DNA from: Candidatus Woesearchaeota archaeon
GTDB lineage: Archaea; Nanobdellota; Nanobdellia; Woesearchaeales; UBA10216
Length of the DNA: 64,000 nucleotides
Assembly: GCA_016192915.1 (NCBI GenBank)
Contig: JACPTF010000011.1
Location: forward strand, 2,118-66,117
Direction of reading: 5' to 3'
The position numbers were made by a program, and so were the translations under genes. How positions within the stretch are numbered: the first letter of the stretch is position 1; every line of letters begins with the position of its first letter. The notes under the pieces are model-generated. The model did no database searches and was not told the origin of the DNA. It worked only from the letters and a program-made list of their open reading frames with translations. Of the stretch, positions 1,446-52,576 are shown one piece after another.

Positions 1446-3656
1446 CTAGGTCAATGTAAACACAAAAGCCGCCTCGCCCTGGTTAGCAATGGTGAAAAGG
1501 CCCGAAGAGGCAACAGCATTAATTAAGGAAACAGTCCTGTTCAGGCCAAAGTTCTTCACTTCAATCCCGCCAATAATAAAGTAGTCGTAGCTGTTGTCGC
1601 GAAGAAAGCTGTGAAGCTCAGATGGCGTGACGTTAAAGAAGCGCTGCCTCATTCTGTATTCAGGCTCGCACCAGCCGCAGGAGTACTTGTCAGAGCCAAT
1701 AACCTGGTCAGGATTCGAGAAAGTGAAAACCTTGGTGTTAGGCGGCAGTGTCCTGAGCCAGCCGTAAACGAGCAGCTCACTAGGCACAGGGCAGTTTGAG
1801 CCCTGCTCAAGCACATAGTTGCCGCCCCAGAACGCCCCGGAAGGCCAGCAAGCAGTATTCAAGTCAAGCTTCGGCTTTGCCGACGTGAAAAAAATTCCCA
1901 CAACAAAGACAGCTATGATTGCAAGCTTTACAGCCGTAACCGCTGAAGCATCAAGCTTAAAGCGGCTCACCAATCCCAGCAGGGCAAAAAGGCCCTCGGA
2001 AGCCAGCATAGCTGCAGGAACTGCCAGGATCATCCAAAAACGGAAGGCAAAAAGGCCAACCGGAAGGTCAAAGGTCTGGTTGTTGACGCCAAGGAAGGCA
2101 AAAAGAAGCCAGCCAAGAAGAATTGCAAGATAGATCACCTGCCTGCGCTCAGCATTGCGCCTCGCAGCTGCAATAACTGCAACAACTGAAAGCAGGAAAG
2201 CCACAGCAAGCAAAACAAGAACCAGCGAAATTGCAAAAACACCGCCATACGAAGGAGGATTAACCCAATTCTGGGGCCTCAAGGGGCCATCACGCCCGTA
2301 AAAGCCCTGCTGGAACTCAAGCGTGCTTGAAGTCAGCAGGATTACCAAAATAATGACAACGACAGCAGCAACAGGAATAACCACCCTGGGCCTTGGCAGG
2401 AGCTTAACAAAGCCAAGAACTGCAGACACCAAACCTGCGGCCATGAGAATGAAGGCAAAAACCCCAAAGCCAACAGGATTATTAACCATGTTCTGGCTCT
2501 GTGCAATAAAGAAGTCCCTAAAAGTGTAAACCCTTGTGGCAGTACCGCTGTCAGGATTCAAAGCGTGAGTGACCAGCCTGATAAGCTTGACTATGACGTT
2601 TGGGGATTGCCTGATGGCGGCCGTGGCAGCCTCAGGACCGTCCTTGAAACTGCCAGCGGCCTTGCTTGCAAAAACCCTCCACTTGAATCCCCACCAGAAA
2701 AGCGAGAGCAAAACACCCAGAATTGCAGCCTTGATGCTGCCTGCATTCTGCTGCACCCACGATTTATTGTCAGCGATTAAGCCCGAAAGCAGCTTAATGC
2801 CAAGGTAGATTGCAACGAAAACAGAAAGCTTTACTGCATGCGTGGGATGGATAAGCAGGACTGAAGCAAAACAGATGGCAGCCACAACCCACCATTTCCT
2901 GCCATGCCTGATCATCTCAAATGCGTACATTGCCGGGAAGAAAGCCACAAGGGCAAAAGCAGGAGCCCAGATAAAATGGCTCAGGTAAGCAGGAACGCTT
3001 GCCAGGACAAAAGTGGCGAACAGGGCCTTTTTACTGCTGCCCATGAACTCCTTGGCAAAAAAATAAAAGAATATTATGCTCAAGGAGATGACCAAGGCGT
3101 TGAAGAACTTCACAACCCAGTAAACTGATGAAGACACCTGGTTAAGCACGCCAAAAAACATGTCATAGCCTGGAGGATAAGGGTCCATGTACTGGCTCTG
3201 GAAGAATTGGGACGCAAAGGCCGTCTTCTCGATTGAGACATACGCTATGCCACGAACATGGGTCCAAGAGTCATCATCCTCAAGGTAAGCATAGCTGAAA
3301 GCCCCTGAAATGTACATGTAAGCAGTAAAGGCGAATACCAGCAGAAGGATGAGGACATTGACATCCGAAAGCCTGAGCCTCAAAGAGGGGGCATTCAGCT
3401 GCCTGTAACCCTTCCTGAAGATAAGACAATATAAAGGCACAGCAACCGACGCAAAAAGGAAAACCCGCCAGTCCAGTGGAATGCGAAACGCATTAAGGGC
3501 CATGCCCAAAACAGTGAATGCTGAAAAGCCAATTCCTAAGCGCATCAGGTTGCGCTCAAGGAAATGCTCACTCTCCCTCGCCAGCCTGGTTGCTGAAAAG
3601 CCAAGCCCCCACGTGTAAACGAAGAAAAGCAGGATTGCGAAAAGCGAAGCAGCCAT
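1446..3656 (-). CDS. Large multi-pass membrane protein, probable GT-C glycosyltransferase
   Basis: More than 12 hydrophobic segments, an acidic first-loop motif EDDDSWTH, YPPGY, and a C-terminal soluble domain. ATG at 3656 is preferred because of its spacing from the TATA-like box at ~3680-3688. Confidence 0.75.
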   Translation of the reverse strand: MAASLFAILLFFVYTWGLGFSATRLARESEHFLERNLMRLGIGFSAFTVLGMALNAFRIPLDWRVFLFASVAVPLYCLIFRKGYRQLNAPSLRLRLSDVNVLILLLVFAFTAYMYISGAFSYAYLEDDDSWTHVRGIAYVSIEKTAFASQFFQSQYMDPYPPGYDMFFGVLNQVSSSVYWVVKFFNALVISLSIIFFYFFAKEFMGSSKKALFATFVLASVPAYLSHFIWAPAFALVAFFPAMYAFEMIRHGRKWWVVAAICFASVLLIHPTHAVKLSVFVAIYLGIKLLSGLIADNKSWVQQNAGSIKAAILGVLLSLFWWGFKWRVFASKAAGSFKDGPEAATAAIRQSPNVIVKLIRLVTHALNPDSGTATRVYTFRDFFIAQSQNMVNNPVGFGVFAFILMAAGLVSAVLGFVKLLPRPRVVIPVAAVVVIILVILLTSSTLEFQQGFYGRDGPLRPQNWVNPPSYGGVFAISLVLVLLAVAFLLSVVAVIAAARRNAERRQVIYLAILLGWLLFAFLGVNNQTFDLPVGLFAFRFWMILAVPAAMLASEGLFALLGLVSRFKLDASAVTAVKLAIIAVFVVGIFFTSAKPKLDLNTACWPSGAFWGGNYVLEQGSNCPVPSELLVYGWLRTLPPNTKVFTFSNPDQVIGSDKYSCGWCEPEYRMRQRFFNVTPSELHSFLRDNSYDYFIIGGIEVKNFGLNRTVSLINAVASSGLFTIANQGEAAFVFTLT

Positions 3657-3711
3657 TGACGGGGAAGGCTGCTGCAAAGATATATAAATTTAACTGGGGC
3701 AACTGGGAAAT

Positions 3712-3819
3712 ATGAATGATTTACAAAGGGTAATTGCTGCCTTGGCATTCTTGTGGACAGCCTTCCTGTTCGCGCTTTACATCTTCAACTACTACAAGCT
3801 ATACACGGGTGGGGCTTGA
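3712..3819 (+). CDS. 35-aa single-TM microprotein preceding GT-C gene
   Basis: MNDLQRVIAALAFLWTAFLFALYIFNYYKLYTGGA*. A TATA-like box lies ~25 bp upstream, and it is similar to the ORF at 28564-28671. Confidence 0.7.
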   Translation: MNDLQRVIAALAFLWTAFLFALYIFNYYKLYTGGA

Positions 3820-5688
3820 GTGATAACCGAACTTGCTTACCTCATATTTATTGCAGCCGGGGCATTAGCTGTTGGCAACATCGCCAGACAGCCCTTTCAT
3901 AAATCCCAATCAAGGCTGGAGGAGTTCCTCGTAAGCAGCGGATTGGGGTTCGTAATCATCTCGGCCGCTTTTTTTATCCTCGGAGCCTTAAAGCTGTACA
4001 TAACGCCAGTATTAGTAGCTGCTGATGTTGTGCTGCTGCTCCTGATTGCTGTACAGGCAAAGAATCTCGCTGCAATTGCAATACCAGACATATCTTGGCT
4101 TAAAGATTCACCGCCAATATCAAAGCTCATCTTTGCTGCCTTTGTTCTGTTTGCCGCCCTTAATTTTATTGCCTCAGCCGCACCGCCAACAAGCGCTGAC
4201 GCGCTCGTGCACCACTTGACAGCCCCGAAGATTTACCTTTCTGAGCACGGCATCGTAAACATTCCCTCATTGCAGCTGATGACAGAAGCGCCAATGTCTG
4301 TCAACATGATTTACCTCTACGGGCTGCAGCTGCTGAACGGAAAATTGGCGCAGATGACTGCGTGGTACCTCTCTTTCCTTGCGGCGCTTGCTGTGTTTAT
4401 GATTACGGCCAGGATAACAACCAAACAAGCTGCTGTTGTGGCTGCAACATTATTCGCGACCATGCCAATATTCTCTGTGTTTAACGTAAGGCCTTACGTT
4501 GACATACCACTGGCGTTCTTTGCGCTGCTTGCAACACACTTGTTCCTGCAGTGGCTGGAACGAAATGAGACAAAACATGCCGTACTTACCGGGCTTTTCA
4601 TGGGAATGGCTGTATCAGCCAAGAACACAGGCCTACTCACCGGGGCGGCATTTGCAATAACAATAGCTGTAATGTTCCTGAGGGCACCGGCTGACAAAAA
4701 AGCCAGATTTGCCGCACAGGCTGCCATAATCGGAGTAGTTGCCGCGGCAATGCTGGCGCCGTGGCTGATTAAAAGCTACCTGAACACAGGAGACCCAATG
4801 CACCCGTTCCTGTATGAATACTTCCAGGGCACTTACTGGAACAACGACCTGGGAAGGACGCTGCTGGAGTTTCACAGAAGCCACGGAATAGGATTTTCGC
4901 TGCCATCACTTATTTCATTTCCATTCAAAATAACCGTAAATCCGCAGCTGTTCGCTGACACTGCAGGCGTAACCCCTGTTTTTCTGGGTTTTCTGCCGCT
5001 GCTGTGGCCGCTGCGAAAGAAAGTTCCAAGGCAAATAACTACCCTGCTAATGTTCGTTGCCATGCTGGTTGTGCTGCAGTTCTTCACCGCCCAGCAGACA
5101 AGATACATGTTCCTGGCATGGGGAATACTGAGCATCATCACGGCTTACATAGTGCACTCATTCAGGACAGAAAGACTTATTCAGGCAGGGCTTTATGCGC
5201 TTGTTGCAATGAGCCTGGCAATGAATGCTGCACTTTGGGCGGCTGCGAATCTGGATGACTTGCCTGCGGCTGCCGGACTGCAACCTGAAAAGGAGTACTT
5301 AATGAAGAAAGTGCCAACCTATGCTGCCACAGAATACCTTGCTGCCGCAGATAAAAACGGAACTGCGTGCTGGTACGGGGAAGGCAGGGGATTCTGGGCC
5401 AAAAACCCTTACGTGTGGTGCAACCCGCTCTACCAGGCGTATGTTGACTTTTTGGAAATAAAAACGCCACAGCAGCTCTCACAAAGGCTAAAGGAGATCA
5501 ACATTTCATACGTCCTTTACGAGAAAAGGATGCGGCAACCTCCCCTTTACGGAAAGAAAAAAGTATACTCTGACAAAACTGCAGAATACTACTTCAGCAG
5601 CAACCAGCTTATGCAGGCTTACCTTGGCGGCTTTGGCACGAAGATTTACGAAGACAACAATACAGAGGTGTACAAAGTTGCAGGGTAG
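3820..5688 (+). CDS. GT-C fold membrane glycosyltransferase (paralog of 28673-30562)
   Basis: Motifs APPTSADALVHHLTAPKIY and PWLIKSYLNTGDPMHPF, many TM helices and a C-terminal extracellular domain. Confidence 0.8.
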   Translation: MITELAYLIFIAAGALAVGNIARQPFHKSQSRLEEFLVSSGLGFVIISAAFFILGALKLYITPVLVAADVVLLLLIAVQAKNLAAIAIPDISWLKDSPPISKLIFAAFVLFAALNFIASAAPPTSADALVHHLTAPKIYLSEHGIVNIPSLQLMTEAPMSVNMIYLYGLQLLNGKLAQMTAWYLSFLAALAVFMITARITTKQAAVVAATLFATMPIFSVFNVRPYVDIPLAFFALLATHLFLQWLERNETKHAVLTGLFMGMAVSAKNTGLLTGAAFAITIAVMFLRAPADKKARFAAQAAIIGVVAAAMLAPWLIKSYLNTGDPMHPFLYEYFQGTYWNNDLGRTLLEFHRSHGIGFSLPSLISFPFKITVNPQLFADTAGVTPVFLGFLPLLWPLRKKVPRQITTLLMFVAMLVVLQFFTAQQTRYMFLAWGILSIITAYIVHSFRTERLIQAGLYALVAMSLAMNAALWAAANLDDLPAAAGLQPEKEYLMKKVPTYAATEYLAAADKNGTACWYGEGRGFWAKNPYVWCNPLYQAYVDFLEIKTPQQLSQRLKEINISYVLYEKRMRQPPLYGKKKVYSDKTAEYYFSSNQLMQAYLGGFGTKIYEDNNTEVYKVAG

Positions 5689-7026: not shown

Positions 7027-7791
7027 ATGAAATACGGCAAGGTACTGCTCACCGGAGGCTCGGGCACTCTGGGGGGGCACATACTCAAGTCAGGGCTGTT
7101 CAAGAACATTATTGCACCGAGCAGCGCAGAACTGGACATAACAAACGCAGCCGCTGTTGAAAAATTCTTTGAAGAGAACGACTTTGATGCCGTGATACAC
7201 TGCGCTGCCCTTGCCAGGATTAGCGAGTGCGAGAAAGAGCCTGAAAAAGCCATGCTGATAAACGCAGTAGGAACGAGCAACCTAGTGGTTGCAGCCATCA
7301 AAAAAGAGGCCGAAACAGGCAGAAAGACAAGGTTCATCCACATTTCAACAGATGGCGTTTACCAGAGCACAAAAGGAGACTACTCTGAAACAGATGAAGC
7401 CATGCCATACAACAGGTACGGGTGGGCAAAGCTCGCGGCAGAAGCATCGGTAAATGTGCTGGCAAACTTCTGCATCATAAGGACAAGATTCCTTGACACG
7501 AAAAACATAAAATATGACGCCTATGCGACAGACTCATACACATCGATAATACCCGTCGATGAACTGGTGAAGGCAATAGCCATCATGGCTGACAGCGAAT
7601 TCGTAGGCACAATAAACGTTGGCGGACAGAAAGTATCCGACTACGACGCCTACAAAAGATACAAGCCAACGATAAAGCCGTGCAAATTCGAAGACATACA
7701 GGGCAAAACCCCTTTCAAGCTGTCAAAAGACGCGTCAATGAATGTTTCGCTGTGGAAAAAGATACAGAAGCAAGCGGGAGCCGAGAAATGA
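7027..7791 (+). CDS. RmlD-like NDP-4-keto-sugar reductase (SDR)
   Basis: TGGSGTLG, VIHCAA, HISTDGVY and YGWAK (YxxxK). Confidence 0.8.
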   Translation: MKYGKVLLTGGSGTLGGHILKSGLFKNIIAPSSAELDITNAAAVEKFFEENDFDAVIHCAALARISECEKEPEKAMLINAVGTSNLVVAAIKKEAETGRKTRFIHISTDGVYQSTKGDYSETDEAMPYNRYGWAKLAAEASVNVLANFCIIRTRFLDTKNIKYDAYATDSYTSIIPVDELVKAIAIMADSEFVGTINVGGQKVSDYDAYKRYKPTIKPCKFEDIQGKTPFKLSKDASMNVSLWKKIQKQAGAEK

Positions 7792-8537
7792 AAACAGCAA
7801 CGCCAGCAAAAACATCACAGAAGCTGAAGCTGACTATAATAATGCCGGTCAGAAATGAGGGCGTTAACCTGAAGATGATACTCAAGATAATCAACTCGCT
7901 GATGGAGGAGCCTTACGAGACACTTGTCGTATATGACAGCCCAGAAGACGACAGCATACCAGTTGCAGCAGAAATGCAAAAGAAAAACCCTGCTGTTAAG
8001 CTGCTGCACAACGCACTAGGAAGAGGGGTTATCAACGCAGTGAAAACAGGGGTTGCTGCTGCGAAAGGAGAGTATGTGCTCATCCTGCCAGCAGATGACA
8101 TGGGAGCAATATTTGGGATAAGCAAGATGCTTGCAGAGGTAGAAAAAGGCTACGACATGGTCAGCGCAACAAGATATGCGAAAGGCGGCAAGGTAGTTGG
8201 AGGCGCGTTAATTAGCAGGCTACTGTCAAGAATAGCAAACAAGCTCTTCAGGGTGTTTGCAGGCTCGGCACTAACAGACTCGACAGTGGGAATAAAAATG
8301 TTCAAACGCAGCGTGTTTAACAGGATAAATTTTGAGTGCAAACCGGTAGGATGGGCATTCGCGTTTGAGATGGCAATAAAATCGCACATGCTTGGGCTGA
8401 AAGTGTCAGAAGTGCCCATTGTCTCAATAAACAGGTTCTACGGAGGAACATCAACATTCAAGCTCAACAAATGGGCATCAGAATACCTAAGATGGTTCAT
8501 GTGGGGGCTGGTGCATGTGAGGTTCAGAAAAAAGTGA
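7788..8537 (+). CDS. GT2 polyprenol-phosphate glycosyltransferase (DPM1-like)
   Basis: IIMPVRNEG, VVYDS, PADD and SATRYAKGG. The ATG at 7788 overlaps the upstream stop (ATGA). Confidence 0.85.
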   Translation: MKTATPAKTSQKLKLTIIMPVRNEGVNLKMILKIINSLMEEPYETLVVYDSPEDDSIPVAAEMQKKNPAVKLLHNALGRGVINAVKTGVAAAKGEYVLILPADDMGAIFGISKMLAEVEKGYDMVSATRYAKGGKVVGGALISRLLSRIANKLFRVFAGSALTDSTVGIKMFKRSVFNRINFECKPVGWAFAFEMAIKSHMLGLKVSEVPIVSINRFYGGTSTFKLNKWASEYLRWFMWGLVHVRFRKK

Positions 8538-19682: not shown

Positions 19683-21086
19683 ATGAACATTTTGCTCATC
19701 CTGCCTCCCAACATTGGCAGATATGTGGTGGCCACCATTCCCCATGCAGGCATCGCCTACCTGGCAGCGTTTCTGGAGAGGGAAGGCCATTCTGTCGACA
19801 TAGCAGACATGAGGATTGACCCAAGCGACGAGAACCTGTTCGCGCAAATCGAGAGGTTCAAGCCGCAGCTAATTGGCCTGAGCACTGCCAGCATAGGCTA
19901 CAAGATGTCCTATGAGCTTGTTTCCAAGCTGAAGAAAAACTTTCCACAGATTCCAATAGCAATTGGCGGCTCCCACGTCTCCACAGTCCACACAAAGGCC
20001 CTTGAAGAGACCGAGGCAGACTATGGAGTATACGGGGAGGGCGAGAAGACATTCATTGAATTGGCAAGGAATGAACCTGCCGAGAACATCAAAGGCCTGA
20101 TCTGGAGAAAAAAAGGCAGCATAGTCATGAACCCTCCTGCCCCGCTGGCACAAGACCTGGACGACTTCCCCTACCCGGCCTATCAAAAGTTCCAGCTAAA
20201 CAAGTTCCTTGAAAAAAGAATCCCGCTGGTAACATCAAGAGGATGCCCGAACAGGTGCACCTTCTGTTCCATCCAGCTTGTTATGGGCTACCCGTTCAGG
20301 ACCAGGAGCCCAAAGAACGTTGTAGATGAAATGGAGCACTGGCACAAAAAGGGCTATGACACTTTCGAAATCAGCGATGACAACTTCACCTTCAACCTGC
20401 CGAGGGCTGAGAAAATATGCGACCTCATCATTGAAAGGGGTCTCAAGATAAAAATGATATTCGGCAACGGCCTGAGGGCTGACAGGGTTAATGAGCAGCT
20501 CCTTGCCAAGCTGAAGCAGGCAGGCTGCGTGTGGATAGCATACGGCCTCGAAACGTCAGACATCTTAGGCCTGCAGCTGCTTAAGAAAGACCTTTCCGTA
20601 GACAAGCTGAAAAGCGCTGTAGAAATGACAAAAAAACTGGGAATTGAGGTGCAGGTAAACTTCATCATAGGATGCCCGGGGCAAACATTTGAAAAATTCA
20701 AGAGGGACCTTGAGTTTGCCGACGAGCTTGGAGTTGACCAAGTCAGGTTCTACAACCTCATACCATATCCTGGCACTGAGATGTTTGAGTGGGTGCAGCA
20801 AAATGGAAGGTTCCTCTACCCTTCTGAAAAATACCTGAACGACTTCAACTACTGGTCTGAGGAGCCAGTCTTTGAGACTGACGAATTCCCCAGGACAGAA
20901 AGGATCCTCGCGTATAAAATGGGGCAAAGCAAGATAATGGAGCTCTTCCTTAAAAGGCACTTTGGCAAGAAACTTGGCACAGTTGGCCACAGGCTCTGGC
21001 GACAGGAATTTGTACAAAAGCACTTAAGGGGAATAGCTACCAAGGCATGGGTAGGTATGAAGAGACTGAAGATAAAGCAGTACTGA
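19683..21086 (+). CDS. B12-binding-domain radical SAM protein
   Basis: GIAYLAA, GGSHVS, GEGE, SRGCPNRCTFC, DDNF and PYPGT. Confidence 0.9.
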   Translation: MNILLILPPNIGRYVVATIPHAGIAYLAAFLEREGHSVDIADMRIDPSDENLFAQIERFKPQLIGLSTASIGYKMSYELVSKLKKNFPQIPIAIGGSHVSTVHTKALEETEADYGVYGEGEKTFIELARNEPAENIKGLIWRKKGSIVMNPPAPLAQDLDDFPYPAYQKFQLNKFLEKRIPLVTSRGCPNRCTFCSIQLVMGYPFRTRSPKNVVDEMEHWHKKGYDTFEISDDNFTFNLPRAEKICDLIIERGLKIKMIFGNGLRADRVNEQLLAKLKQAGCVWIAYGLETSDILGLQLLKKDLSVDKLKSAVEMTKKLGIEVQVNFIIGCPGQTFEKFKRDLEFADELGVDQVRFYNLIPYPGTEMFEWVQQNGRFLYPSEKYLNDFNYWSEEPVFETDEFPRTERILAYKMGQSKIMELFLKRHFGKKLGTVGHRLWRQEFVQKHLRGIATKAWVGMKRLKIKQY

Positions 21087-26954: not shown

Positions 26955-28400
26955 TCACGCCCTGCCCACAAGAACCTTCTCAAAAGCCAGCTTTAGCAGG
27001 CCATTGCCTCCCATGAAGTTGCTCTTAAACTCGTTCCAGCTTCTAACCCTGCTAAGCTTTCTAAGAATATAGCTTGGCCTCAGGTAGAACTCCAAGACAG
27101 CCCTGCCAGTCCAGTACCTCAGCTGCCTGGAAGTCAGCTTAGTTGTCCTTAGCAGTGGGTCAGTTCCGTGAATGATATGGCCTTCAAAATTGTCAGGCTG
27201 CTCGAAAAGCTTGTTTGCAATGACCTCATCGTAGACAGGAGTTCCAGGGTACGGGTTCAATACGTTAAAGAATGTCAGGTCAGCATCAACCTTTTTGGCG
27301 AACTTTATCGTAGCCTTAAGCTCCTCTTCGCCCTCCCATGGGAAGCCCATGATAAAAGAGGCCTTGACCATAATTTTGTGCTTCTGGGCCATCCTCACAG
27401 CTTTTAAAACCATGTCGCACGTGATAGGCTTGTTTACCTTCTTGAAGCCCTCATCGTAGCCTGTTTCTACGCCAAAAACCATGCTTCTGCAGCCAGCACT
27501 GGCCATGGCACTAAGCAGCTCATCATCCATGTGATTGACTCGCGCCAGGCACTCCCAGGCCAAGTCCATCTTGGCCTCCTTAATCTTATCACATATTTCA
27601 ATAACCCTCTTATGATTAACGGCGAACTCGTCGTCCTGGAAATAAATGTGCCTAACCCCATATTTATCGTAAAGGAGCTTAATCTCCTCAAATACTTTTT
27701 CGGGCGACCTCTGGCGCCAATACTTGGCCTGTATTGAGCTCTGGCAGAAGTTGCACTTGAACGGGCAGCCACGGGAGGTCACCATTGTTGTAAACTTTCT
27801 GCCGAGATTCAGCCAGCCGTACGAGTGATACTTCTCCATTGGGAAAAGGTGATAAGCGGGCATGGGCAAAGAGTCCAAATTTTTCACAACAGGCCTCTCG
27901 GCGGTCCTGACCTTATTCTTATTTGAATCCAGATACATCAGCCCCTTTATCTCACTTAGCGGGGTATTGCTCTTTTTGTAAATGTAGTCCAGCAGCTCAA
28001 CTATAGTTTCCTCTGCTTCATTGATCACAACGTAATCAACAACACCTTCTTCCTGAAAGGCAGAGCCCGGGTTTACGGTAACGTGAGGGCCCCCGATAAT
28101 ATTAATGACAGACGGGTTGTTTTCCTTGGCTTTCTTTAAAATAGACATTGCTATTTTGAAATTGGCAGTAACTGCACCCAGAAGAACTAATTTTGGGTTA
28201 TGCCCCTCTATCTCCCTGGCTACCTCAGCTTCGGTAAGCTCCAAGCCAAAGCAATCGAGAATCTTCACATCGTAGCCAAGCCTCTCTATTACGGCGGCTA
28301 TTACACCGAGGCCCAAATTCGGGCATTTTGGCCCTATGGCACCGAGCCTTCCATAACTGAAAGGCGGTGCCACGCACAATATCTCTGTCACAGTGCACAC
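26955..28400 (-). CDS. B12-binding-domain radical SAM protein
   Basis: PNLGLG, GGPHVT, SRGCPFKCNFC, FQDDEF, FGVETG and PYPGT. Confidence 0.9.
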   Translation of the reverse strand: MCTVTEILCVAPPFSYGRLGAIGPKCPNLGLGVIAAVIERLGYDVKILDCFGLELTEAEVAREIEGHNPKLVLLGAVTANFKIAMSILKKAKENNPSVINIIGGPHVTVNPGSAFQEEGVVDYVVINEAEETIVELLDYIYKKSNTPLSEIKGLMYLDSNKNKVRTAERPVVKNLDSLPMPAYHLFPMEKYHSYGWLNLGRKFTTMVTSRGCPFKCNFCQSSIQAKYWRQRSPEKVFEEIKLLYDKYGVRHIYFQDDEFAVNHKRVIEICDKIKEAKMDLAWECLARVNHMDDELLSAMASAGCRSMVFGVETGYDEGFKKVNKPITCDMVLKAVRMAQKHKIMVKASFIMGFPWEGEEELKATIKFAKKVDADLTFFNVLNPYPGTPVYDEVIANKLFEQPDNFEGHIIHGTDPLLRTTKLTSRQLRYWTGRAVLEFYLRPSYILRKLSRVRSWNEFKSNFMGGNGLLKLAFEKVLVGRA

Positions 28401-28563
28401 TCCAAGCTCATCAGTCCCTTTTTAATATGACTTCACCATAGTGAATAATCTCAACATAACTAGTTAATAAAACTATCGCCCAATCGCCTATTCCCCATTT
28501 GGCTATTCACGGGACATTCACAAAAATTTATAAAGTTTCTCTTTTGCTGCGACTGCTGTTACG

Positions 28564-28671
28564 ATGAGGACTGTTTACTTGGTTATTGCTGCAGCCTGGA
28601 TTGCTGCTGTTGTCTCATTTTACTTCTTTTTTACCATAAGAACGCTTCTGCCATACGCTGGAGGAGGCTGA
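28564..28671 (+). CDS. 35-aa single-TM microprotein preceding GT-C gene
   Basis: MRTVYLVIAAAWIAAVVSFYFFFTIRTLLPYAGGG*. A TATA box (TTTATAAA, ~28527-34) lies upstream, and it is similar to 3712-3819. Confidence 0.7.
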   Translation: MRTVYLVIAAAWIAAVVSFYFFFTIRTLLPYAGGG

Positions 28672-28672
28672 G

Positions 28673-30562
28673 ATGCTCGAGCTCATCTTTCTGGCTTTTT
28701 TTGTGCTTGCCGCTTTCGGCACAGGCTCCCTGCTGCTTAGCATCTTCAGGTTTCGTTTTCATTCCTTTTCAGAGGAGTTTTTCTTTTCCATTGCAATTGG
28801 CTATGGCGTGGTTGCCTTGCTGACTTACCTGCTGGGATTTTATGGCCTGCTTTACAGGCAGGTCTTTACGCTGCTGTTTCTCGCGTTGCTTGCGGTGTCT
28901 TTTGGCAGGGTGAAGCATGCGGTTACGCAACTACTGGCCTCTCAGAAGGTAATACCGAAGCTTAACACTTTTTCAGTCCTCGTTGCAGTTATAATATTCT
29001 TTTCAGTTTTCAACCTTGTTGCCAGCCTTGCCCCGCCCTGGAGCTACGACACTACAACATACCACTTGGCTGTCCCTAAGATTTATGCAATGGAGCATGG
29101 CTTTGTTGCCCTGCCTTCGCTTTTCCACTCCAACTTTGTCATGATACCGGGCATGGCGTTTCTGGCTGCGTTCGTGGTTAAGAATGGCGTTCTTGCAAAC
29201 CTTGTAAACTTCACCTTCAGCGTTCTGTTGGCTTTGGGCATTTACTCTTTTTGCAGCCGTTTCCTTAACAAAAAGGCAGGCGTTATCGCTTCTGCCATTT
29301 TCCTCACGCTTCCAATCATAGCGGTCTACTCGGCCTCAGCCCATGCAGACATTCCGCAGGCTTTTTTCGCTTTTTCGGCTTTTTACGCCTTCATTGTTTG
29401 GGCAGAGAGAAGCAGCAATAGCAGCCCGGTGCTGGGCTGGTTCATTGTTTCAGCGTTTATGACCGGCCTTGTAGCAGCTTCAAAATTCACAGGGCTTGCT
29501 TTCGTTGCCATAATGGCATCTTTGATGTTTTTTTATGGAATTTTTGCCGGAAAGCATGGGCCTTTGCCCCGGTTATTGAAAACAACAGTTCTTTCAACAG
29601 CCGCCTTCATTTTATTAGCGCTGGTTGTGGCTTTTCCCGCTTACCTAAAAAACTGGGTGTACTCAGGCAATCCTTTCTTCCCGCTGTACTATAATATTTT
29701 TGGCGGAAAATTCCTTAATGCTAACGTGTCCGAGTTTTTCTCAACAACGCTCCAGCACGGCACTGGCATAAGCCTTGGCAGCTTTCTCATCACCCCATGG
29801 AACATAACCATGCATCCGCTGATGTTCATTGAGCTTATCGGGATAGGACCCCTGTTTCTGGCATTTATCCCCCTGCTGCTTTTTGTGAAGCGGAACAGGA
29901 TTATCGTGCTCACTCTTGCCACAGGCCTGCTTCCCTTAATTCCATGGTTCCTCACTTCACAGAACCTGAGGTATTTGACTTACACATTTCCTTTCCTTTC
30001 GATAGTAACCGCTTTCGTGATATACTCCCTGGCAAATTCCGCAGCCAGCAAGGCGCTTAGAAGCTTTATTGCAGTGGTTGTCGCTGTTGTTCTTGTGTCA
30101 AATACCGTGCTGCTGTTCGGCGCCAATGCCAAGCAGCTGCCCGTAGCTTTAGGGCTTGAGTCAGAGGCAGATTTCTTTGCAAAGCTTAAAGACGGCCAGA
30201 TATACGGCATGTGCCAATTCACCAACTCAAACCTCCCTGCCAGTGCAAGAATTTTGCTGCTTTACGAAGACAGGGGATACCATTGCGATACGCCTTACAT
30301 TATTGGGGACCCAAGGCAGCAGGCTTTCATCGACTATTCAAAAATCTCTAATGCTGAGGACTACGCCAAAAGGCTTTGGGAAATTGGAGTGACTCATATT
30401 ATTGTTAACAAGGCAAACACCATTCACAAGCCAGGTGACATGTTTTACAGTAATGAAACAGCGGCCATTATCGAAAGCCTTATAAAAAATTACGGCACTT
30501 TAGCCCATTCTGAAGGGGGGGCTGAGCTTTACTCATTCGCCTACGGTCCGGGAGCTTCTTAA
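28673..30562 (+). CDS. GT-C fold membrane glycosyltransferase (paralog of 3820-5688)
   Basis: APPWSYDTTTYHLAVPKIY, AYLKNWVYSGNPFFP and QNLRY, with many TM helices. Confidence 0.8.
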   Translation: MLELIFLAFFVLAAFGTGSLLLSIFRFRFHSFSEEFFFSIAIGYGVVALLTYLLGFYGLLYRQVFTLLFLALLAVSFGRVKHAVTQLLASQKVIPKLNTFSVLVAVIIFFSVFNLVASLAPPWSYDTTTYHLAVPKIYAMEHGFVALPSLFHSNFVMIPGMAFLAAFVVKNGVLANLVNFTFSVLLALGIYSFCSRFLNKKAGVIASAIFLTLPIIAVYSASAHADIPQAFFAFSAFYAFIVWAERSSNSSPVLGWFIVSAFMTGLVAASKFTGLAFVAIMASLMFFYGIFAGKHGPLPRLLKTTVLSTAAFILLALVVAFPAYLKNWVYSGNPFFPLYYNIFGGKFLNANVSEFFSTTLQHGTGISLGSFLITPWNITMHPLMFIELIGIGPLFLAFIPLLLFVKRNRIIVLTLATGLLPLIPWFLTSQNLRYLTYTFPFLSIVTAFVIYSLANSAASKALRSFIAVVVAVVLVSNTVLLFGANAKQLPVALGLESEADFFAKLKDGQIYGMCQFTNSNLPASARILLLYEDRGYHCDTPYIIGDPRQQAFIDYSKISNAEDYAKRLWEIGVTHIIVNKANTIHKPGDMFYSNETAAIIESLIKNYGTLAHSEGGAELYSFAYGPGAS

Positions 30563-30563
30563 A

Positions 30564-31895
30564 ATGGCCAAAGCCGCAGGATTCATCAAAAACTTAAGCC
30601 CGGAAGTAAAGCTGCTTCTGCTGCTTCTTGTGCCAGTAGCTGTTGTCATCCTGCTGCACTACCTAATAACAGGGTTCATCATTTACAATGATGGCATGTC
30701 TTACTACATATACGGCAGGTCGCTTGTAATCGATAGGGACCTTAACTTCACCAACGAATGGAACTTTTACAATACGTCATACAGCAAATTTTCTTCTGTG
30801 CCGAGGGGCATTAACGCACCGCAGGCAAAAACGCCGAAAGGCTACCCGGAAAGCACATACCTTATTGGCAATTCTGTGATGTGGCTGCCATTTTTCCTTA
30901 CAGCACATGCTGCTGCGATGATTCTAAGCTCCCTAGGGCTGCCTGTAAGGGCTGACGGCTACAGCTGGCCTTACGAGATTGCAATAGGCCTTGCCACGCT
31001 GATATACGGCTTCTTTGCCATGCTGCTGATTTACAAGTTCTGCACGAAATGGTTTGACAAAAAAACTTCGCTTCTGGCAACAATAGCCGTATGGTATGGA
31101 ACCGCAGTTTTCTGGTACCACGCCATAGAGCCAAGCCTTTCCCACATAAACTCCATGCTGGCCATAACAGCGTTTACATATTTCTGGCACAACACCCTGG
31201 GAAAAAGGACAAAGCTGCAATGGCTGCTTCTTGGGCTGCTGCTCGGACTTATTTACCTGGTAAGGCAGCAGGACATACTGCTTGGCATACTGCCTATGCT
31301 TGAGTTGCTGAAAAGGTCATTAAGAGGCGTCAATCTTTACATGATAAGAAAAACAGCAGCCGAAGGGCTCACATTCGCCACAGGCGCAATAACGGCAATA
31401 CTGCCTCAAATGCTTGCGTGGAAAAAGCTTTACGGAAGCTACATTGTCTACTCATATGCCAACACAGCACAGTACTGGCACTGGACAATACCGCAGTTGC
31501 TGCCGTTTTTTCTCTCACCACAGCACGGGATGTGGAAAGTTCCTGTCATGCTCGCTGCCCTCATAGGGCTGGCAGTGTTCACATTCAGAAGAGGTGGAAT
31601 TGCGTGGTATTTCCTTGCTGTTGTGGTTGCAGAGATACTCGTGACATCAGCATGGACGGGTTGGATGAACGGGTACGGGCAAAGGTTCCTACTCGGAACT
31701 TCAGCATTCTTAACCCTGGGAGCAGCTGAGCTCATACAAAAGCTGAAGGAAAAAGCAGGAATGAAAGCAGTCGTTGCCGCCATGGCTGCGCTAATAGCCG
31801 CAAACGCCGTGAACATGACGCTGGTAATGCTAAAAGAGGTCACTTCGAAGGTGCCGCTTTCAGAATTCCCAAACATTATCAGAAGCCTATTCTAA
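30564..31895 (+). CDS. GT-C-like membrane glycosyltransferase
   Basis: NDGMSYYIYGRSLVIDRDLNF.NE, LVRQQD and YGQRFL, multi-TM. Confidence 0.75.
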   Translation: MAKAAGFIKNLSPEVKLLLLLLVPVAVVILLHYLITGFIIYNDGMSYYIYGRSLVIDRDLNFTNEWNFYNTSYSKFSSVPRGINAPQAKTPKGYPESTYLIGNSVMWLPFFLTAHAAAMILSSLGLPVRADGYSWPYEIAIGLATLIYGFFAMLLIYKFCTKWFDKKTSLLATIAVWYGTAVFWYHAIEPSLSHINSMLAITAFTYFWHNTLGKRTKLQWLLLGLLLGLIYLVRQQDILLGILPMLELLKRSLRGVNLYMIRKTAAEGLTFATGAITAILPQMLAWKKLYGSYIVYSYANTAQYWHWTIPQLLPFFLSPQHGMWKVPVMLAALIGLAVFTFRRGGIAWYFLAVVVAEILVTSAWTGWMNGYGQRFLLGTSAFLTLGAAELIQKLKEKAGMKAVVAAMAALIAANAVNMTLVMLKEVTSKVPLSEFPNIIRSLF

Positions 31896-33364
31896 AAGTC
31901 CCCCCTGAGCTTTGCCTTAATAATGGTCTGTAGGGTTGTCAGGAAATCCCCCCTCATGAAATACCGGACTAAGTACCTTGGGCTGAAATAGTAATCAACA
32001 AAGCTCTTCTCAGACAATCGTTCAAGGTAGTGCTCGTCAAACTCGCCAGAAATCCTCATTGAGGCAGAATAGCTGCCAAGCTTGTCAAAGCCCTCGCTGG
32101 TAAGCCATTTGTTCTCCTTTGCCATCTTGTAAAGCATTGTGCCGGGGAATGGCGTTGCGATCTTGTACTCAGTCTGGCTGCCAAAAAGCTTCCTGCTGAA
32201 TTCAATGGTCTCCTCCATCGTCTGCTTTGTAGAGCCAGGCAACCCAAGGATAAAAAAGCATGATGTCCTAATGCCCGCCTTCTCACAGCGGTGGATTGTG
32301 TCAAGGATTTTGTCAAGAGGAAGCGGCAGCCTGTTAATCTTTTTCAGAATTTCCGGGTGAATATCCTCAACACCAAAGTTAATCGTCCTGCAGCCAGCCT
32401 TCGCGAGCTTTTCGATAAGGCCGGGCTTGCTAAGAAGCTCAGGCCTGGTTTCAAAGCAGAACTGAATCTTAATGCCGCTCTGGATGATAAGGTCGCAAAG
32501 CTTTTCGGCGCGCTCCTGGTTTGCCGTGAAAAGAGGGTCACGGAAGAAGACCGCCTTAATGCCAAACTTTTCAACATCCCACTTAATCTCCTCAAAAACG
32601 CTCTCAGCGCTCCTTGCCCGCCACAGCCTTCCTTGGTTAGCCGGATAAGGGCAGTAGCCGCACCCGTAAGGGCAGCCGCGAGATGCCTGAATCAGGACAA
32701 CAGGGGTTTTTGTAAGCATAGGATAATAAGAGTAGTGCTTATAAGGCCACAGGCCCCAGTCAGGGAAAGGCAGCTTCTCAAGCTCCTCAACAGGGATAAA
32801 GCGCTTGCCGCCCTCGCTTTTCCTGACTTCATTATTCTCCTGCCAAATAATGGACTGAATCTCTTTGTAAGGCACACCCTCAACAATCAAGGGCACAGAC
32901 TGCTCAACCTCACCCATGACTGCAAAGTCAAAATAAGGCAGAAGCTCCTGCGGCATCTCTGTAATCATGTCACCGGCAGCAATAACCTTAACGCCGGGAA
33001 TTTCCTCTTTTAATCTTCGGGCAACATCATCGCGCTCAAACTTGAAGCAGCCGCTGCTCACACCCATAAGGACAAACTGCGGGCCAAAAGCCTTTGCCTC
33101 CTTAAGGACGTGCTCAATGCCTTCTCCGGTGTTAATCGCGTCAATTATTTTGAGCTCGTGGCCGCGCTGCTTCAGAACAGTAGCAGCGTTAACAAGGTGC
33201 GTCATGGGGATGTGGATGACGATGCTTTTTATCCTGAAGATAATCTTGGCCCTTATGTCCCTTCCCGGGGGAGCGTTATGCACACCCATCCCGCCCATCA
33301 GGTCGCGATTAATGTAAGACGCATCAGGGCTTGGAGGATTAAGAATCAAAACCTTGGCAGGCAT
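31892..33364 (-). CDS. B12-binding-domain radical SAM protein
   Basis: LNPPSP..YINRDLMGGMG, GEVE, ASRGCPYGCGYC, FRDPLFT and TPFPGT. Confidence 0.9.
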   Translation of the reverse strand: MPAKVLILNPPSPDASYINRDLMGGMGVHNAPPGRDIRAKIIFRIKSIVIHIPMTHLVNAATVLKQRGHELKIIDAINTGEGIEHVLKEAKAFGPQFVLMGVSSGCFKFERDDVARRLKEEIPGVKVIAAGDMITEMPQELLPYFDFAVMGEVEQSVPLIVEGVPYKEIQSIIWQENNEVRKSEGGKRFIPVEELEKLPFPDWGLWPYKHYSYYPMLTKTPVVLIQASRGCPYGCGYCPYPANQGRLWRARSAESVFEEIKWDVEKFGIKAVFFRDPLFTANQERAEKLCDLIIQSGIKIQFCFETRPELLSKPGLIEKLAKAGCRTINFGVEDIHPEILKKINRLPLPLDKILDTIHRCEKAGIRTSCFFILGLPGSTKQTMEETIEFSRKLFGSQTEYKIATPFPGTMLYKMAKENKWLTSEGFDKLGSYSASMRISGEFDEHYLERLSEKSFVDYYFSPRYLVRYFMRGDFLTTLQTIIKAKLRGDF

Positions 33365-40233: not shown

Positions 40234-40513
40234 CGGTAGCAGATGTCAAGGCATTATTCCAATCAAAAGCAGAGGCAGATAACTTTATAAAGGCAACACC
40301 CATTCCATACATCGTGAACGGCCATGGCCGCCTGGTAATACCTGATCCCATTTCGAACTCAGAAGTCAAGCGGGCGCACGTTCCTGCCAGTACTGCACGT
40401 CGTGCGGAAACGCAGGGTCGCTGTTCACACTTTTTATTCTAGGAGACAAAATCATGATAGTCAACAAAACCGAGTACATAAAGCACTTCGCAGAGCACTT
40501 CAGGATTAAGTAG
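40230..40513 (+). other. Small hypothetical ORF, possibly frameshifted into a Cys-rich continuation
   Basis: ORF 40230-40442 overlaps the upstream stop. Another frame reads SCQYCTSCGNAGSLFTLFILGDKIMIVNKTEYIKHFAEHFRIK* to 40513. Confidence 0.3.
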
Positions 40514-50334: not shown

Positions 50335-51855
50335 TCACTTGCTTCCATACAGCGACTCGTTGACAAAAACATAGTAGCTTAGTTGGCCGTCGTAGTAGGT
50401 GCCGTTGAACACCTGCCTGAAGCTTGACTGCAGGTAGCTGTGCATGTTGGCCTTGGCGGTTTCGCATTCGAAGTCACCTGCTGGGCAGAAGAGCGTTTCT
50501 GAACTAAAAATAACTGCCTCAAACGCCTTGTTCTGCTCCCACTCGTTCAAAGCTTTAAGCTCCTGCGGAATGCCTTGGAAGGACGTGAAGTAGTAAGGGA
50601 AAAAGCGGTTGTTGCTGTAAGCGGCGAAAACAGGCTCTGATGTCAGAACAGCCCCCCTAATGCCGAGTGCTGAGACAGACTTGTAAAGCTCTGACGCCAC
50701 AGCAGGCTCGGATGATGGGCGCCAGCTGTAAAAGTGGTAATCTTTGTAGGCAGCAACGGCAAAGGAGAGGAGCAAAAGCGCTATCATGGCAACGAGTGCA
50801 AATGAACGCGCAGGCTTCAGCTTTGTGCTTATGCTGCGGCTAAGCTTCAACAACTCAAAGAACGCTGCAGCTGCAAAAATGCAGATTGCAGGCAGGAACA
50901 AAATCAGGAAGCGCTCGTCCTTGTTCTGGATGTAAGTGAAGTATGCTGCATAAATTGCAAAGTAAGAGGCCAGCAGCAGCTTGCCTGAGTCGGAAAACCA
51001 TTTCCTTTTCCAGAACAGGAATGCTGCGGCAATGGCTAGCACAAAAACAAAGTGCTGCTTGAACGCCTCAATCGCATAGAAAGAGTAGTTCAGCAGCGGC
51101 TCGGTTATGGCCTTTGCAGGGTTTGACTGGTGCCACGCTCCCAATATGAAAGGCCTGAATATTGCATCGTATGGGTTGCTGGTGAAAGGCCTGTAGAAGA
51201 CGTAATTGAAAACAAGGAAAGGCAGGGTAACCATGAAGAATGCTGTTGAAGTTTTAATTAGCGGCCATAACTGCGATTTCTTGGAGATTAATCCAGGAAT
51301 AATAACTGCTGCCGCTATTGCAGCCAGCACAAGCCCGTTTGGAAACTTGAAAAGCATTGCTAACGCTGCAGCAGCACCGGAAAGGTAGTAGCGCTTATTG
51401 ACGAAGAAATAGATTGTTGCCAGAACAAAAAAAAGCGAAGGAACTTCGGTGAGGATGTAGGAGGAGTATAGGAAGAAAAGTGGTGAGGCTGCAAGGAGGG
51501 CAGAGGCAAGAAACGCGACGTTTCTGTTGAAAAGCCTTTTCCCAGTAAGGTAGCACAGGATTATGCTGCCTGCTCCGAAAGCGACAGTTACGATTTCCGA
51601 AAAGAGCATTTGCGGCAGCTGCAGTTTCCAAACCAGGCCTGTAATCAGCGGCAGCCCTGGAGGCCTGAGCATCTCCCAAAGGCCAGAGCTGCCCAGAGAA
51701 TAAATGTACTTGCCCATGCCAAGGTAGACTGCCTCGTCCCAGATTGGAAGATGATACCTTAGTAGGAAAGCGACCTTTGCAGCGGCAAAAACAGCTAAGA
51801 TTAGCAGAAGTGGCTGCAATTGCTTATCCTGTAGTGTTTTCTGAAGCAGCCTCAT
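50335..51855 (-). CDS. GT-C (PMT/ArnT-like) membrane glycosyltransferase
   Basis: IWDEAVYLGMGK, RPPGLP, ILTEVPS and KDERFL, multi-TM. Confidence 0.85.
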   Translation of the reverse strand: MRLLQKTLQDKQLQPLLLILAVFAAAKVAFLLRYHLPIWDEAVYLGMGKYIYSLGSSGLWEMLRPPGLPLITGLVWKLQLPQMLFSEIVTVAFGAGSIILCYLTGKRLFNRNVAFLASALLAASPLFFLYSSYILTEVPSLFFVLATIYFFVNKRYYLSGAAAALAMLFKFPNGLVLAAIAAAVIIPGLISKKSQLWPLIKTSTAFFMVTLPFLVFNYVFYRPFTSNPYDAIFRPFILGAWHQSNPAKAITEPLLNYSFYAIEAFKQHFVFVLAIAAAFLFWKRKWFSDSGKLLLASYFAIYAAYFTYIQNKDERFLILFLPAICIFAAAAFFELLKLSRSISTKLKPARSFALVAMIALLLLSFAVAAYKDYHFYSWRPSSEPAVASELYKSVSALGIRGAVLTSEPVFAAYSNNRFFPYYFTSFQGIPQELKALNEWEQNKAFEAVIFSSETLFCPAGDFECETAKANMHSYLQSSFRQVFNGTYYDGQLSYYVFVNESLYGSK

Positions 51856-52576
51856 CGTCTTCCTCCAAAATTGCAGAAGAAATCCCTGAGCACTCTTCAA
51901 CAGGGGTTTTGAAAGAGCCGCAGACTATGGGCAGGAGGTTGCTTTTGGAGACGACGCCTTCGTACTTGCCCTCCCCAACTATTATGGTTGGGTAAGTGGT
52001 TACGTTGTAGCGCTTCTTCAGCATCTCAATCGATGCCTCATCGGCTTCAAGGTCTGTGTTTATCGGGAAAACAAGCAGCCTGTCGCCAAGGAGCTTCTTG
52101 TAGTAGGACAGTATTACGCCCTGGTCGGGGCATATGCTGCATTTTTCGTCAGAATAAAAGTAGAGGACTGATACAAAGTCCAGGTCACAGAGCTCCTTTG
52201 TTCTCTTCGCAAAAAGCCAGTACCTCAGGTTGTCAAGCACGTAAGCCCTGGCGAGTTCGTTGAACTCCTCCTGGTTGAAGTTAGCGGAAACCTTGTAGCT
52301 TTCCATTCTTTCAAGCGAGTCTGTCAGGCTTTTGATGCTGCTCTGGAGGCTAAGCCCAAACACAGGGCAGGAATCAGTGTTGTTCGTAAGCGTGTTGAGG
52401 TAAAGCTGCTGGAACTGCAGGCTCTTGTAGTTGAGCTCCTGCACCTTGGTTGCCTTCTCAACCTTCACCAGGCGCTGGTCATCAATCAGAACACTGAGCA
52501 GAAAGCCCAGGCTGAAGACAAGCAGCGAGATAAATCCAACGACAACGTACGTTTTCAGGTAGATTTGCCTAGCCAT
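51824..52576 (-). CDS. Membrane-anchored protein with C-terminal thioredoxin-like domain
   Basis: N-terminal TM helix, helical region, YFYSDEKCSICPDQG (CxxC) and YNVTTYPTIIV (cis-Pro loop). Confidence 0.75.
   Translation of the reverse strand: MARQIYLKTYVVVGFISLLVFSLGFLLSVLIDDQRLVKVEKATKVQELNYKSLQFQQLYLNTLTNNTDSCPVFGLSLQSSIKSLTDSLERMESYKVSANFNQEEFNELARAYVLDNLRYWLFAKRTKELCDLDFVSVLYFYSDEKCSICPDQGVILSYYKKLLGDRLLVFPINTDLEADEASIEMLKKRYNVTTYPTIIVGEGKYEGVVSKSNLLPIVCGSFKTPVEECSGISSAILEEDDEAASENTTG

Follow-up and report, generated by a model that had tools for sequence, protein, structure and literature searches.

GT-C glycosyltransferases are enzymes that assemble and modify cell envelopes and glycoproteins across all domains of life, and those of bacteria and archaea are generally studied and expressed as single polypeptides. 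In the eukaryotic oligosaccharyltransferase, the GT-C enzyme STT3 is bound by OST4, a single-pass subunit of about 36 amino acids (aa), for which Pfam has a model. Here, we analyze a stretch of 64,000 nucleotides (nt) from Candidatus Woesearchaeota archaeon (assembly GCA_016192915.1, contig JACPTF010000011.1, positions 2,118 to 66,117; hereafter the window), in which two 35-aa membrane microproteins are each encoded directly ahead of a GT-C gene, and which an earlier note, made from the letters of this DNA, had read as a case of an unannotated accessory subunit. The comparisons given below point to a new cross-domain microprotein family that is tied to one GT-C subfamily, and for which an accessory function is proposed.

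Other described systems also offer terms of comparison. Among the small membrane subunits of bacteria, kdpF is found at the head and cydX at the tail of the operon of the respective partner, while the GtrA/GtcA-type proteins of three-component glycosylation (GT2, flippase, GT-C), which are proposed flippases, have several helices and about 120-150 aa. Leader peptides of the SecM/MifM type, on the other hand, work in cis while they are being translated, and have to lie upstream. KdpF (29 aa) and AcrZ (49 aa) are given as small membrane subunits of larger bacterial membrane machines in the available text of a review of small membrane proteins (PMC12648545), and CydX (37 aa) as a small bacterial membrane subunit in that of a second source (PMC4325964). 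The terms glycosyltransferase, ArnT and GT-C have 0 occurrences in the available text of the former, and literature searches returned no description of a microprotein partner for prokaryotic GT-C enzymes.

The features of the window that are central here are the following, with positions counted from its first letter:

3680-3689, TATA box (ATATATAAAT) read in the sequence, serving microprotein 1 and GT-C1
3712..3819, plus strand, microprotein gene 1, ATG start, TGA stop, 35 aa, MNDLQRVIAALAFLWTAFLFALYIFNYYKLYTGGA
3807-3814, plus strand, putative Shine-Dalgarno-like site GGGTGGGG for GT-C1, within the last codons (T-G-G-A) of microprotein 1
3820..5688, plus strand, GT-C1, ArnT/PMT-like GT-C glycosyltransferase, 622 aa, GTG start, Pfam PMT_2 3e-09
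28527-28534, plus strand, TATA box (TTTATAAA), 29 nt ahead of the ATG at 28564, putative promoter
28564..28671, plus strand, microprotein gene 2, ATG start, TGA stop, 35 aa, MRTVYLVIAAAWIAAVVSFYFFFTIRTLLPYAGGG
28660-28667, plus strand, putative Shine-Dalgarno-like site GGAGGAGG for GT-C2, within the A-G-G-G codons of microprotein 2
28673..30562, plus strand, GT-C2, 629-aa paralogue of GT-C1, Pfam PMT_2

Both 35-aa open reading frames (ORFs) are located and encoded exactly as the earlier note gave them, and its account of the junctions agrees with the window sequence as well, with a TATA box in front of each small ORF and a stop codon 0 or 1 nt ahead of the GT-C start. The TGA of microprotein gene 1 is followed, with no gap and in the same frame, by the GTG at 3820, while that of microprotein gene 2 is separated by 1 nt from the ATG at 28673, which lies in frame +1. 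Each peptide reads as a single transmembrane helix, with hydrophobic stretches at V7-F25 in microprotein 1, which has W15-x7-Y23 and the tail NYYKLYTGGA, and at V4-F23 in microprotein 2, which has W12-x7-Y20 and R26. Given that the comparison of the two peptides by BLASTP is not significant (E 0.54), the letters that they have in common prove nothing by themselves, and, among the common features that had been named at the outset, W-x7-Y (plus a K/R six residues on) proved to be a feature of the family, while VIAA and the terminal Y-x-GG did not. Rfam, at gathering thresholds, found no RNA family at either small-ORF site.

One scan of genome contigs gave 72 homologous loci (L numbers below). 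Two of these, L001 and L002, are from Woesearchaeota, with an enzyme 51% identical to GT-C1, and have a small ORF at the equivalent place:

L001 2832-2942, copy 1 orthologue, ..SLVWTSLLFALYMLHYYRLYAG
L002 2880-2978, copy 1 orthologue, MNRHVVIFLTFLWTGLLFLLYFFNYFRLLRPL

VIAA is not kept even among these orthologues of copy 1. The terminal Y-x-GG coincides with the Shine-Dalgarno sequence of the downstream enzyme, as had been suspected of its GG codons, and L001 has a likewise embedded arrangement, GGGGTGA ahead of the ATG at 2947, while in L002 the Shine-Dalgarno site is placed after the stop and the peptide ends in ..RLLRPL instead of G-G. The terminal G-G is the Shine-Dalgarno site of the enzyme gene, and not a protein-level feature.

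When the codons of the window, L001, and L002 are compared in frame, the proportion of synonymous differences (pS) is 0.79-0.90, i.e., saturated, against 0.36-0.45 for the nonsynonymous ones (pN), while pS and pN are about the same in either of the other frames; of the 31 codons, 21-24 differ at the third position and 6-13 at the second. The peptides are 42-52% identical and the enzymes, similarly, 51-52%. In the protein collection, which was searched with a query led by the 41-aa ORF of L001, the copy 1 peptide was found identical on 10 contigs, together with a further 35-aa relative, P0024. Copy 1 is almost certainly a real gene.

The wider family emerged from a first profile, built from six archaeal peptides and applied to all the loci and the window in six-frame translation. 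With this purely archaeal profile, three of the four best non-seed matches (L062, L064, and L060) end exactly at the start of a bacterial GT-C gene, and the iterated profile recovered 21 pieces with E values up to 1.3e-6, the next one following at 0.064; the 21 represent 19 of the 72 loci and both of the window copies. All 19 positive loci are from metagenome-assembled genomes, and none is from a cultured isolate. The peptide gene lies upstream of GT-C in 14 of them, which bears out the expectation that equivalent small ORFs would be found when homologues were collected and their upstream DNA was translated; it lies directly downstream in 4, and in one (L053) before a neighbouring membrane gene. 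The members have a short K/R-rich N-terminus, one helix with W-x7-[Y/F], and an aromatic/basic tail, with 30-47 aa when they stand alone in the loci and up to 58-80 aa with N-terminal extensions, and their conserved residues, a mid-helix W and an interfacial Y/F, are in the helix and not at the 3' end. In L071 (Patescibacteria; 2338-2580), an 80-aa ORF has approximately eight tandem WFRQ repeats ahead of the conserved helix. Another locus, L012, has a 72-aa two-helix ORF (1886-2101) some 125 nt upstream of the GT-C gene, which ends in ..ICIWFFIILGLYFPRL.. with W-x7-Y, and this may be a diverged member of the family missed by the profile.

The linkage of these peptides to GT-C genes is tight. 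Among the 81 GT-C-like frames, the peptide gene was found upstream at 16 of the 75 that have at least 150 nt of upstream DNA (14 loci plus the 2 window copies), and directly downstream at 4 of the 77 that have at least 150 nt of downstream DNA. A profile-free test, which counted start-coupled hydrophobic ORFs of 25-90 aa with W-x7-[YF], was positive at 9 of 60 GT-C genes, but at only one among the 367 other ORFs of 150 aa or more in this DNA (Fisher p 1.1e-7). This sole non-GT-C positive is the neighbour in L053, where the peptide precedes another membrane ORF, of 587 aa, which is itself followed by the GT-C. In 16 of the 17 upstream cases, the distance between microprotein stop and enzyme start lies between -22 and +13 nt, while L071 has a gap of 76 nt. 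In L003, L004, L013, and L059, the peptide gene abuts or overlaps the enzyme stop instead, starting at it or 1 nt after it, with unrelated genes next. These four loci are the closest relatives of GT-C2 for which DNA is available, together with L006, which has no peptide; they form one clade with a support of 100 in both trees, and combine with the GT-C1 group and GT-C2 in a 12-row group (support 98 in FastTree, SH-aLRT 94 in IQ-TREE quick). As far as gene order can tell, the family is tied genetically to a single subfamily of ArnT/PMT-like (LIC_10190-like) GT-C glycosyltransferases.

Selection acts on the peptide as it does on the enzyme. In seven unsaturated pairs of other loci, the ratio of nonsynonymous to synonymous rates (dN/dS) is 0.09-0.36 in the peptide gene and 0.12-0.21 in the adjacent enzyme, while an eighth pair is saturated. 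These ratios, and the excess of pS over pN in copy 1, show the small ORFs to be conserved, with purifying selection acting on them, in agreement with what the earlier note had anticipated. Two sets of enzyme and peptide pairs are very similar across phyla, i.e., L034 and L047 (Gammaproteobacteria / Daviesbacteria; GT-C pS 0.43) and L004 and L013 (Nanoarchaeota / Methanosarcinales; pS 0.40), which points to recent horizontal transfer or mis-binning.

When 1.84 billion representative proteins were searched with the profile, 13 matched at E <= 1e-3, a count that is a lower bound, given that the profile is so short; 11 of them have 33-58 aa, and six of these are new beyond the loci and the window. 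The two long matches, P0031 (2294 aa) and P0033 (706 aa), were hit in 34 and 10 separate stretches, and are probably repetitive aromatic/hydrophobic sequences. A Pfam-A hmmscan of 11 family peptides, at E up to 10, gave no usable family match, NCBIfam had no match for the peptides, and the ESM Atlas returned nothing usable (best score 0.82). The description of the peptides as conserved and unannotated thus holds for their conservation and for the lack of a Pfam or NCBIfam model, but not in full, as identical or related small proteins exist as nameless entries. The family occurs in DPANN, in other archaea, and in several bacterial phyla.

The two downstream genes are paralogous GT-C genes, as first read, with PMT_2 in both and 30% identity over 547 aa (E 7e-63). 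They match NCBIfam LIC_10190_fam over nearly the whole model with 38.2 and 32.5 bits (GT-C1 7.2e-10), below the 100-bit curated cut-off, and on these scores the partner enzymes are related to the LIC_10190 family but under its membership cut-off. Their named close relatives are from Candidatus Woesearchaeota, and GT-C2 is placed by the trees nearest to archaeal genes, those of L003, L004, L013, and L059. A profile of 68 homologues matched ArnT (5ezm) among the solved structures, with E 1.7e-6, and D127 of GT-C1 is the same residue in all 68 of them. The AlphaFold2 model of GT-C1 (pLDDT 96.3, pTM 0.95) matched STT3, ArnT, AglB, AftA, DPY19, and PglB in Foldseek, where the first matches are STT3 chains (7oci_F, E 2.9e-7) and the best target-normalised TM-score is 0.61 (ArnT). 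The protein thus has the multi-pass membrane domain of the GT-C fold, the conserved Asp in the first outer loop, and a match to it in both family and fold.

In the same model, three helices of GT-C1 (2-23, 32-56, and 62-87) lie ahead of the canonical first GT-C helix (99-118) and D127. This N-terminus is common to P0004-P0009, and the database homologues begin at the residue of the window GTG. The 743-aa minus-strand protein of the window, in its part at 3500-3656, and a 609-aa ORF of L059 (5087-6916) have in common an N-terminal module, '..E(H/N)FLERNLMRLG(I/F)G..', which is similar to the one with S-x-LE-x-F ... G-x-G at the N-terminus of GT-C1 and GT-C2; from this likeness, a three-helix N-terminal module may be common to several GT-C subfamilies.

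Set beside the described systems, the microproteins resemble OST4 in size, in their single transmembrane helix, and in having a GT-C partner, and the parallel drawn by the earlier note stands as this analogy, although not as a sequence relation, given that the hmmscan of the 11 peptides gave no Ost4 match at E up to 10. The partner of OST4 is STT3, whereas that of the microproteins is closer to ArnT, by profile and by TM-score, than to STT3/AglB, and, unlike OST4 and STT3, the pair is encoded in a prokaryotic operon with gene overlap. KdpF, CydX, and AcrZ have a transporter, an oxidase, and an efflux pump as partners, with no sequence similarity to the microproteins seen; the likeness is in the length of less than 50 aa, the one hydrophobic helix, the operon shared with the partner, and the conservation with it across taxa, all of which are found in the family. 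Proteins of the GtrA/GtcA type are likewise encoded with GT2 and GT-C surface-glycan genes; the single helix of the microproteins, their 30-47 aa, and the lack of a GtrA match in Pfam show that they are not of this type.

The expression signals bear on how the pair would be made. No Shine-Dalgarno sequence lies ahead of either small ORF in the window, and the same type of TATA box is found ahead of the orthologous small ORFs in L001 and L002. Archaeal transcription starts approximately 26-27 nt downstream of the TATA box, and, as the ends of the boxes lie 22 nt (copy 1) and 29 nt (copy 2) from the ATGs, the transcripts would be leaderless or near-leaderless, with the peptide ATG as their first codon. 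The near-palindromic box at 3680-3689 lies about 27 nt from the ATG at 3712 (plus strand) and about 28 nt from the ATG at 3656 (minus strand) of a divergent 743-aa GT-C-like gene, which suggests one bidirectional archaeal promoter with two leaderless transcripts. A scan for sigma-70 promoters did no better than shuffles, as is expected for an archaeon. Among the bacterial loci, L046, L020, and L060 have strong Shine-Dalgarno sites ahead of the peptide gene, and L036 and L030 (Actinomycetota) have a TTGACA-17 nt-TAnnnT promoter which ends about 7 nt before the peptide ATG.

We consider it reasonably probable that the peptide is a translationally coupled transmembrane accessory subunit of the GT-C enzyme, in the manner of OST4, KdpF, or CydX. 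Each window peptide would be the first cistron of a transcript starting just behind the TATA box, and, because the Shine-Dalgarno site of the enzyme falls within the end of its coding sequence, the two would be made together. The K/R-rich N-terminus and the positive-inside rule predict an N-in/C-out peptide. In the GT-C fold, the chain passes outward through the first canonical helix and then enters the loop that has the catalytic Asp, and, as three helices precede helix 99-118 and D127, the N-terminus of GT-C1 is expected outside; the three-helix layout of the model is compatible with such a topology. The C-terminus of the peptide would then lie beside the N-terminus of the enzyme, as a helix in trans (or fused, perhaps in L032) requires, and the peptide would pack as an extra helix, a "TM0 in trans", on the extra N-terminal three-helix module.

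On balance, we lean towards binding of the enzyme by the peptide, which would act as a stoichiometric accessory subunit that stabilises or tunes it. A stoichiometric helix is suggested by the overlapping junctions, by a linkage that survives the move from before to after the enzyme, by the enzyme-like selection, and by the conserved mid-helix W and interfacial Y/F. The earlier proposal of a translationally coupled accessory subunit is thus borne out in so far as the peptides are conserved, selected, and tightly, often overlappingly, joined to GT-C genes, while their being a subunit is what we infer from this. A broader suggestion, to be taken as tentative, is that this GT-C subfamily would be a two-chain enzyme, in which an ancient cross-domain helix of 30-45 aa, encoded before, after, or fused, is needed for stability, donor-lipid binding, or activity. 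The pair would then be a prokaryotic counterpart of OST4 and STT3, and would hint that subunits of the "helix in trans" kind are an old property of GT-C enzymes in general.

The same conservation, selection, and linkage would also apply to a small membrane protein of the same glycosylation pathway that does not bind the GT-C enzyme, and is concerned with the polyprenyl-phosphate sugar donor, the marking of the acceptor, or membrane insertion. Linkage data carry no measure of contact, the Trp conserved at mid-membrane might be turned towards lipid and not towards protein, and the peptide of L053 stands before the other membrane ORF. This pathway protein is nevertheless unlikely, given that it is the GT-C gene to which the peptide gene is linked, before or after it, amid other neighbours that vary (radical SAM, GT2, another membrane protein), that the junctions overlap or nearly so, as is usual for equimolar partners, and that L032 is a candidate fusion.

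Several findings weigh against the accessory-subunit reading or parts of it. In 53 of the 72 homologous loci, there is no recognisable stand-alone microprotein, and the enzyme fold thus appears to have no general need for the peptide; in the window, the other three GT-C-like genes have no small ORF, and only 2 of 5 carry one. The rankings of the later profiles are circular for their seeds, since these profiles contain the matches being ranked. With regard to fused copies, 16 of the 20 in-frame extensions described below do not score above ordinary transmembrane helices, and AlphaFold2 puts the N-terminal helix of L032 at pLDDT 50-59, so that its packing is without a confident prediction. For copy 2, the only relative found, P0026, is so close that the translation of the upstream non-coding DNA is conserved too, which makes it too close for a selection test, and the best of 360 small hydrophobic control pieces scores 15.2, equal to the 15.3 of copy 2, which makes for modest statistics.

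These last two points would fit copy 2 being a chance hydrophobic ORF in a 5' leader, with copy 1 alone a gene, as would the non-significant BLASTP between the copies and the lack of a small transmembrane ORF upstream of the nearest GT-C2 relatives with DNA (L003, L004, L006, L013, and L059). Four of these five (not L006) do, however, carry a family member downstream, and the length, the position, and the W-x7-Y-x5-[KR] register of copy 2 are those of the family. When the profile was built without it, copy 2 scored 15.3 bits, above all of the 479 control transmembrane windows (maximum 11.6), and hhalign of copy 2 plus P0026 against the 26 other family members gave P 2.7e-4 with a probability of 42%, with the W and the Y in register. 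The protein search for copy 2, with its 45-aa stop-to-stop frame as the query, found the identical peptide on 12 contigs; P0026 is a longer gene call whose last 35 residues are identical to copy 2 at 29 of 35, and its six substitutions all keep the hydrophobic or basic character, with no indel. A chance ORF is therefore improbable, copy 2 is very probably a real gene, and the two window copies are likely to be homologous; its membership of the family is supported by moderate evidence from these profile comparisons. The control piece that scores 15.2, L018(-) 550-648, was set aside as a chance match, as it lies inside a 117-aa ORF in another frame.

A further explanation is that the small ORF serves only for regulation or coupling, delivering ribosomes to the enzyme start or sensing membrane or secretion stress in the manner of SecM/MifM, while the peptide itself has no job. 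Like these leaders, the microprotein gene is a first cistron that lies directly before, and is coupled to, a membrane-protein gene, abutting or overlapping the enzyme start and carrying the enzyme Shine-Dalgarno sequence in its 3' codons, and a 35-aa peptide might be expected barely to exit the ribosome tunnel before termination. Against this, the amino acids are conserved from archaea to bacteria at the dN/dS given above, it is the helix rather than the 3' end that holds the conserved residues, and a leader role is contradicted by the copies downstream of the enzyme in L003, L004, L013, and L059, where leader action is impossible. We thus regard a leader without a functional peptide as highly improbable.

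The earlier note had also envisaged a split-off first helix, with a fused TM0 in bacterial homologues. In-frame N-terminal extensions of at least 30 residues occur at 20 loci, and approximately 13 contain a hydrophobic helix, although only that of L032 (..ILWAAFISSCYWTNFFFPGG..), which has W-x7-Y, stands above all 479 control helices, with those of L070, L019, and L044 in the top 1-5% of the controls and the others like ordinary helices. Some bacterial homologues may, on this comparison, carry the peptide fused as an N-terminal helix, while a free-standing subunit fits better than a detached helix, as the peptide gene lies downstream of the enzyme in four archaeal loci. In a bacterial clade of L020, L028, L034, L035, L046, L047, and L053, the enzyme begins at profile position 36-44, without the first extra N-terminal helix, and the peptide gene overlaps the enzyme start by 7-22 nt; here, the peptide might stand in for the missing enzyme helix.

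Stop readthrough or frameshifting into one fused protein, with the peptide as TM0 of the enzyme in cis, would suit copy 1, which is in frame with GT-C1 across a single TGA, and the in-frame helices of some bacterial homologues, but it is extremely improbable, as the frame relation varies (copy 2 is at +1, and in L001 and L002, where 4 and 13 nt separate the two genes, the frames differ as well), overlaps at the bacterial junctions reach 22 nt and are out of frame, the peptide gene follows that of the enzyme at four loci, and the database homologues of GT-C1 start where the window GTG does. Simple readthrough is excluded as a general rule because copy 1 alone is in frame, an argument which the frames of the two window copies had already prompted.

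If the accessory-subunit reading is true, a hidden partner would explain failed expression or reconstitution in this subfamily and change how its structures should be solved. The small-protein field would gain a cross-domain family with an obvious partner to test. Archaeal leaderless first cistrons with embedded Shine-Dalgarno sites can, moreover, shape the C-terminus of a peptide. Annotation pipelines miss such genes or leave them nameless, and the profile built here could seed a family model.

Finally, both of the microprotein genes lie within a large surface-glycan island, which occupies 1446-37089 and 50335-53856 of the window, and has GT2 genes near both copies:

1446-3656, minus strand, GT-C-like gene
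3820-5688, plus strand, GT-C-like gene (GT-C1)
28673-30562, plus strand, GT-C-like gene (GT-C2)
30564-31895, plus strand, GT-C-like gene
50335-51900, minus strand, GT-C-like gene
19683-21086, plus strand, B12-binding radical SAM gene
26955-28400, minus strand, B12-binding radical SAM gene
31892-33364, minus strand, B12-binding radical SAM gene

The island also includes several GT2 and GT4 genes, sugar-nucleotide enzymes, and a C-methyltransferase. Elsewhere, the window has a lone 5S rRNA gene at 40314-40429 (Rfam 67.7 bits), and no tRNA gene was found anywhere in the 64 kb. An RmlD-like ORF at 7027-7791 (254 aa), which matches the first half of the domain only, overlaps the longest GT2 reading (7680-8537) by 112 nt, which implies a GT2 start further in or a truncated RmlD-like gene.

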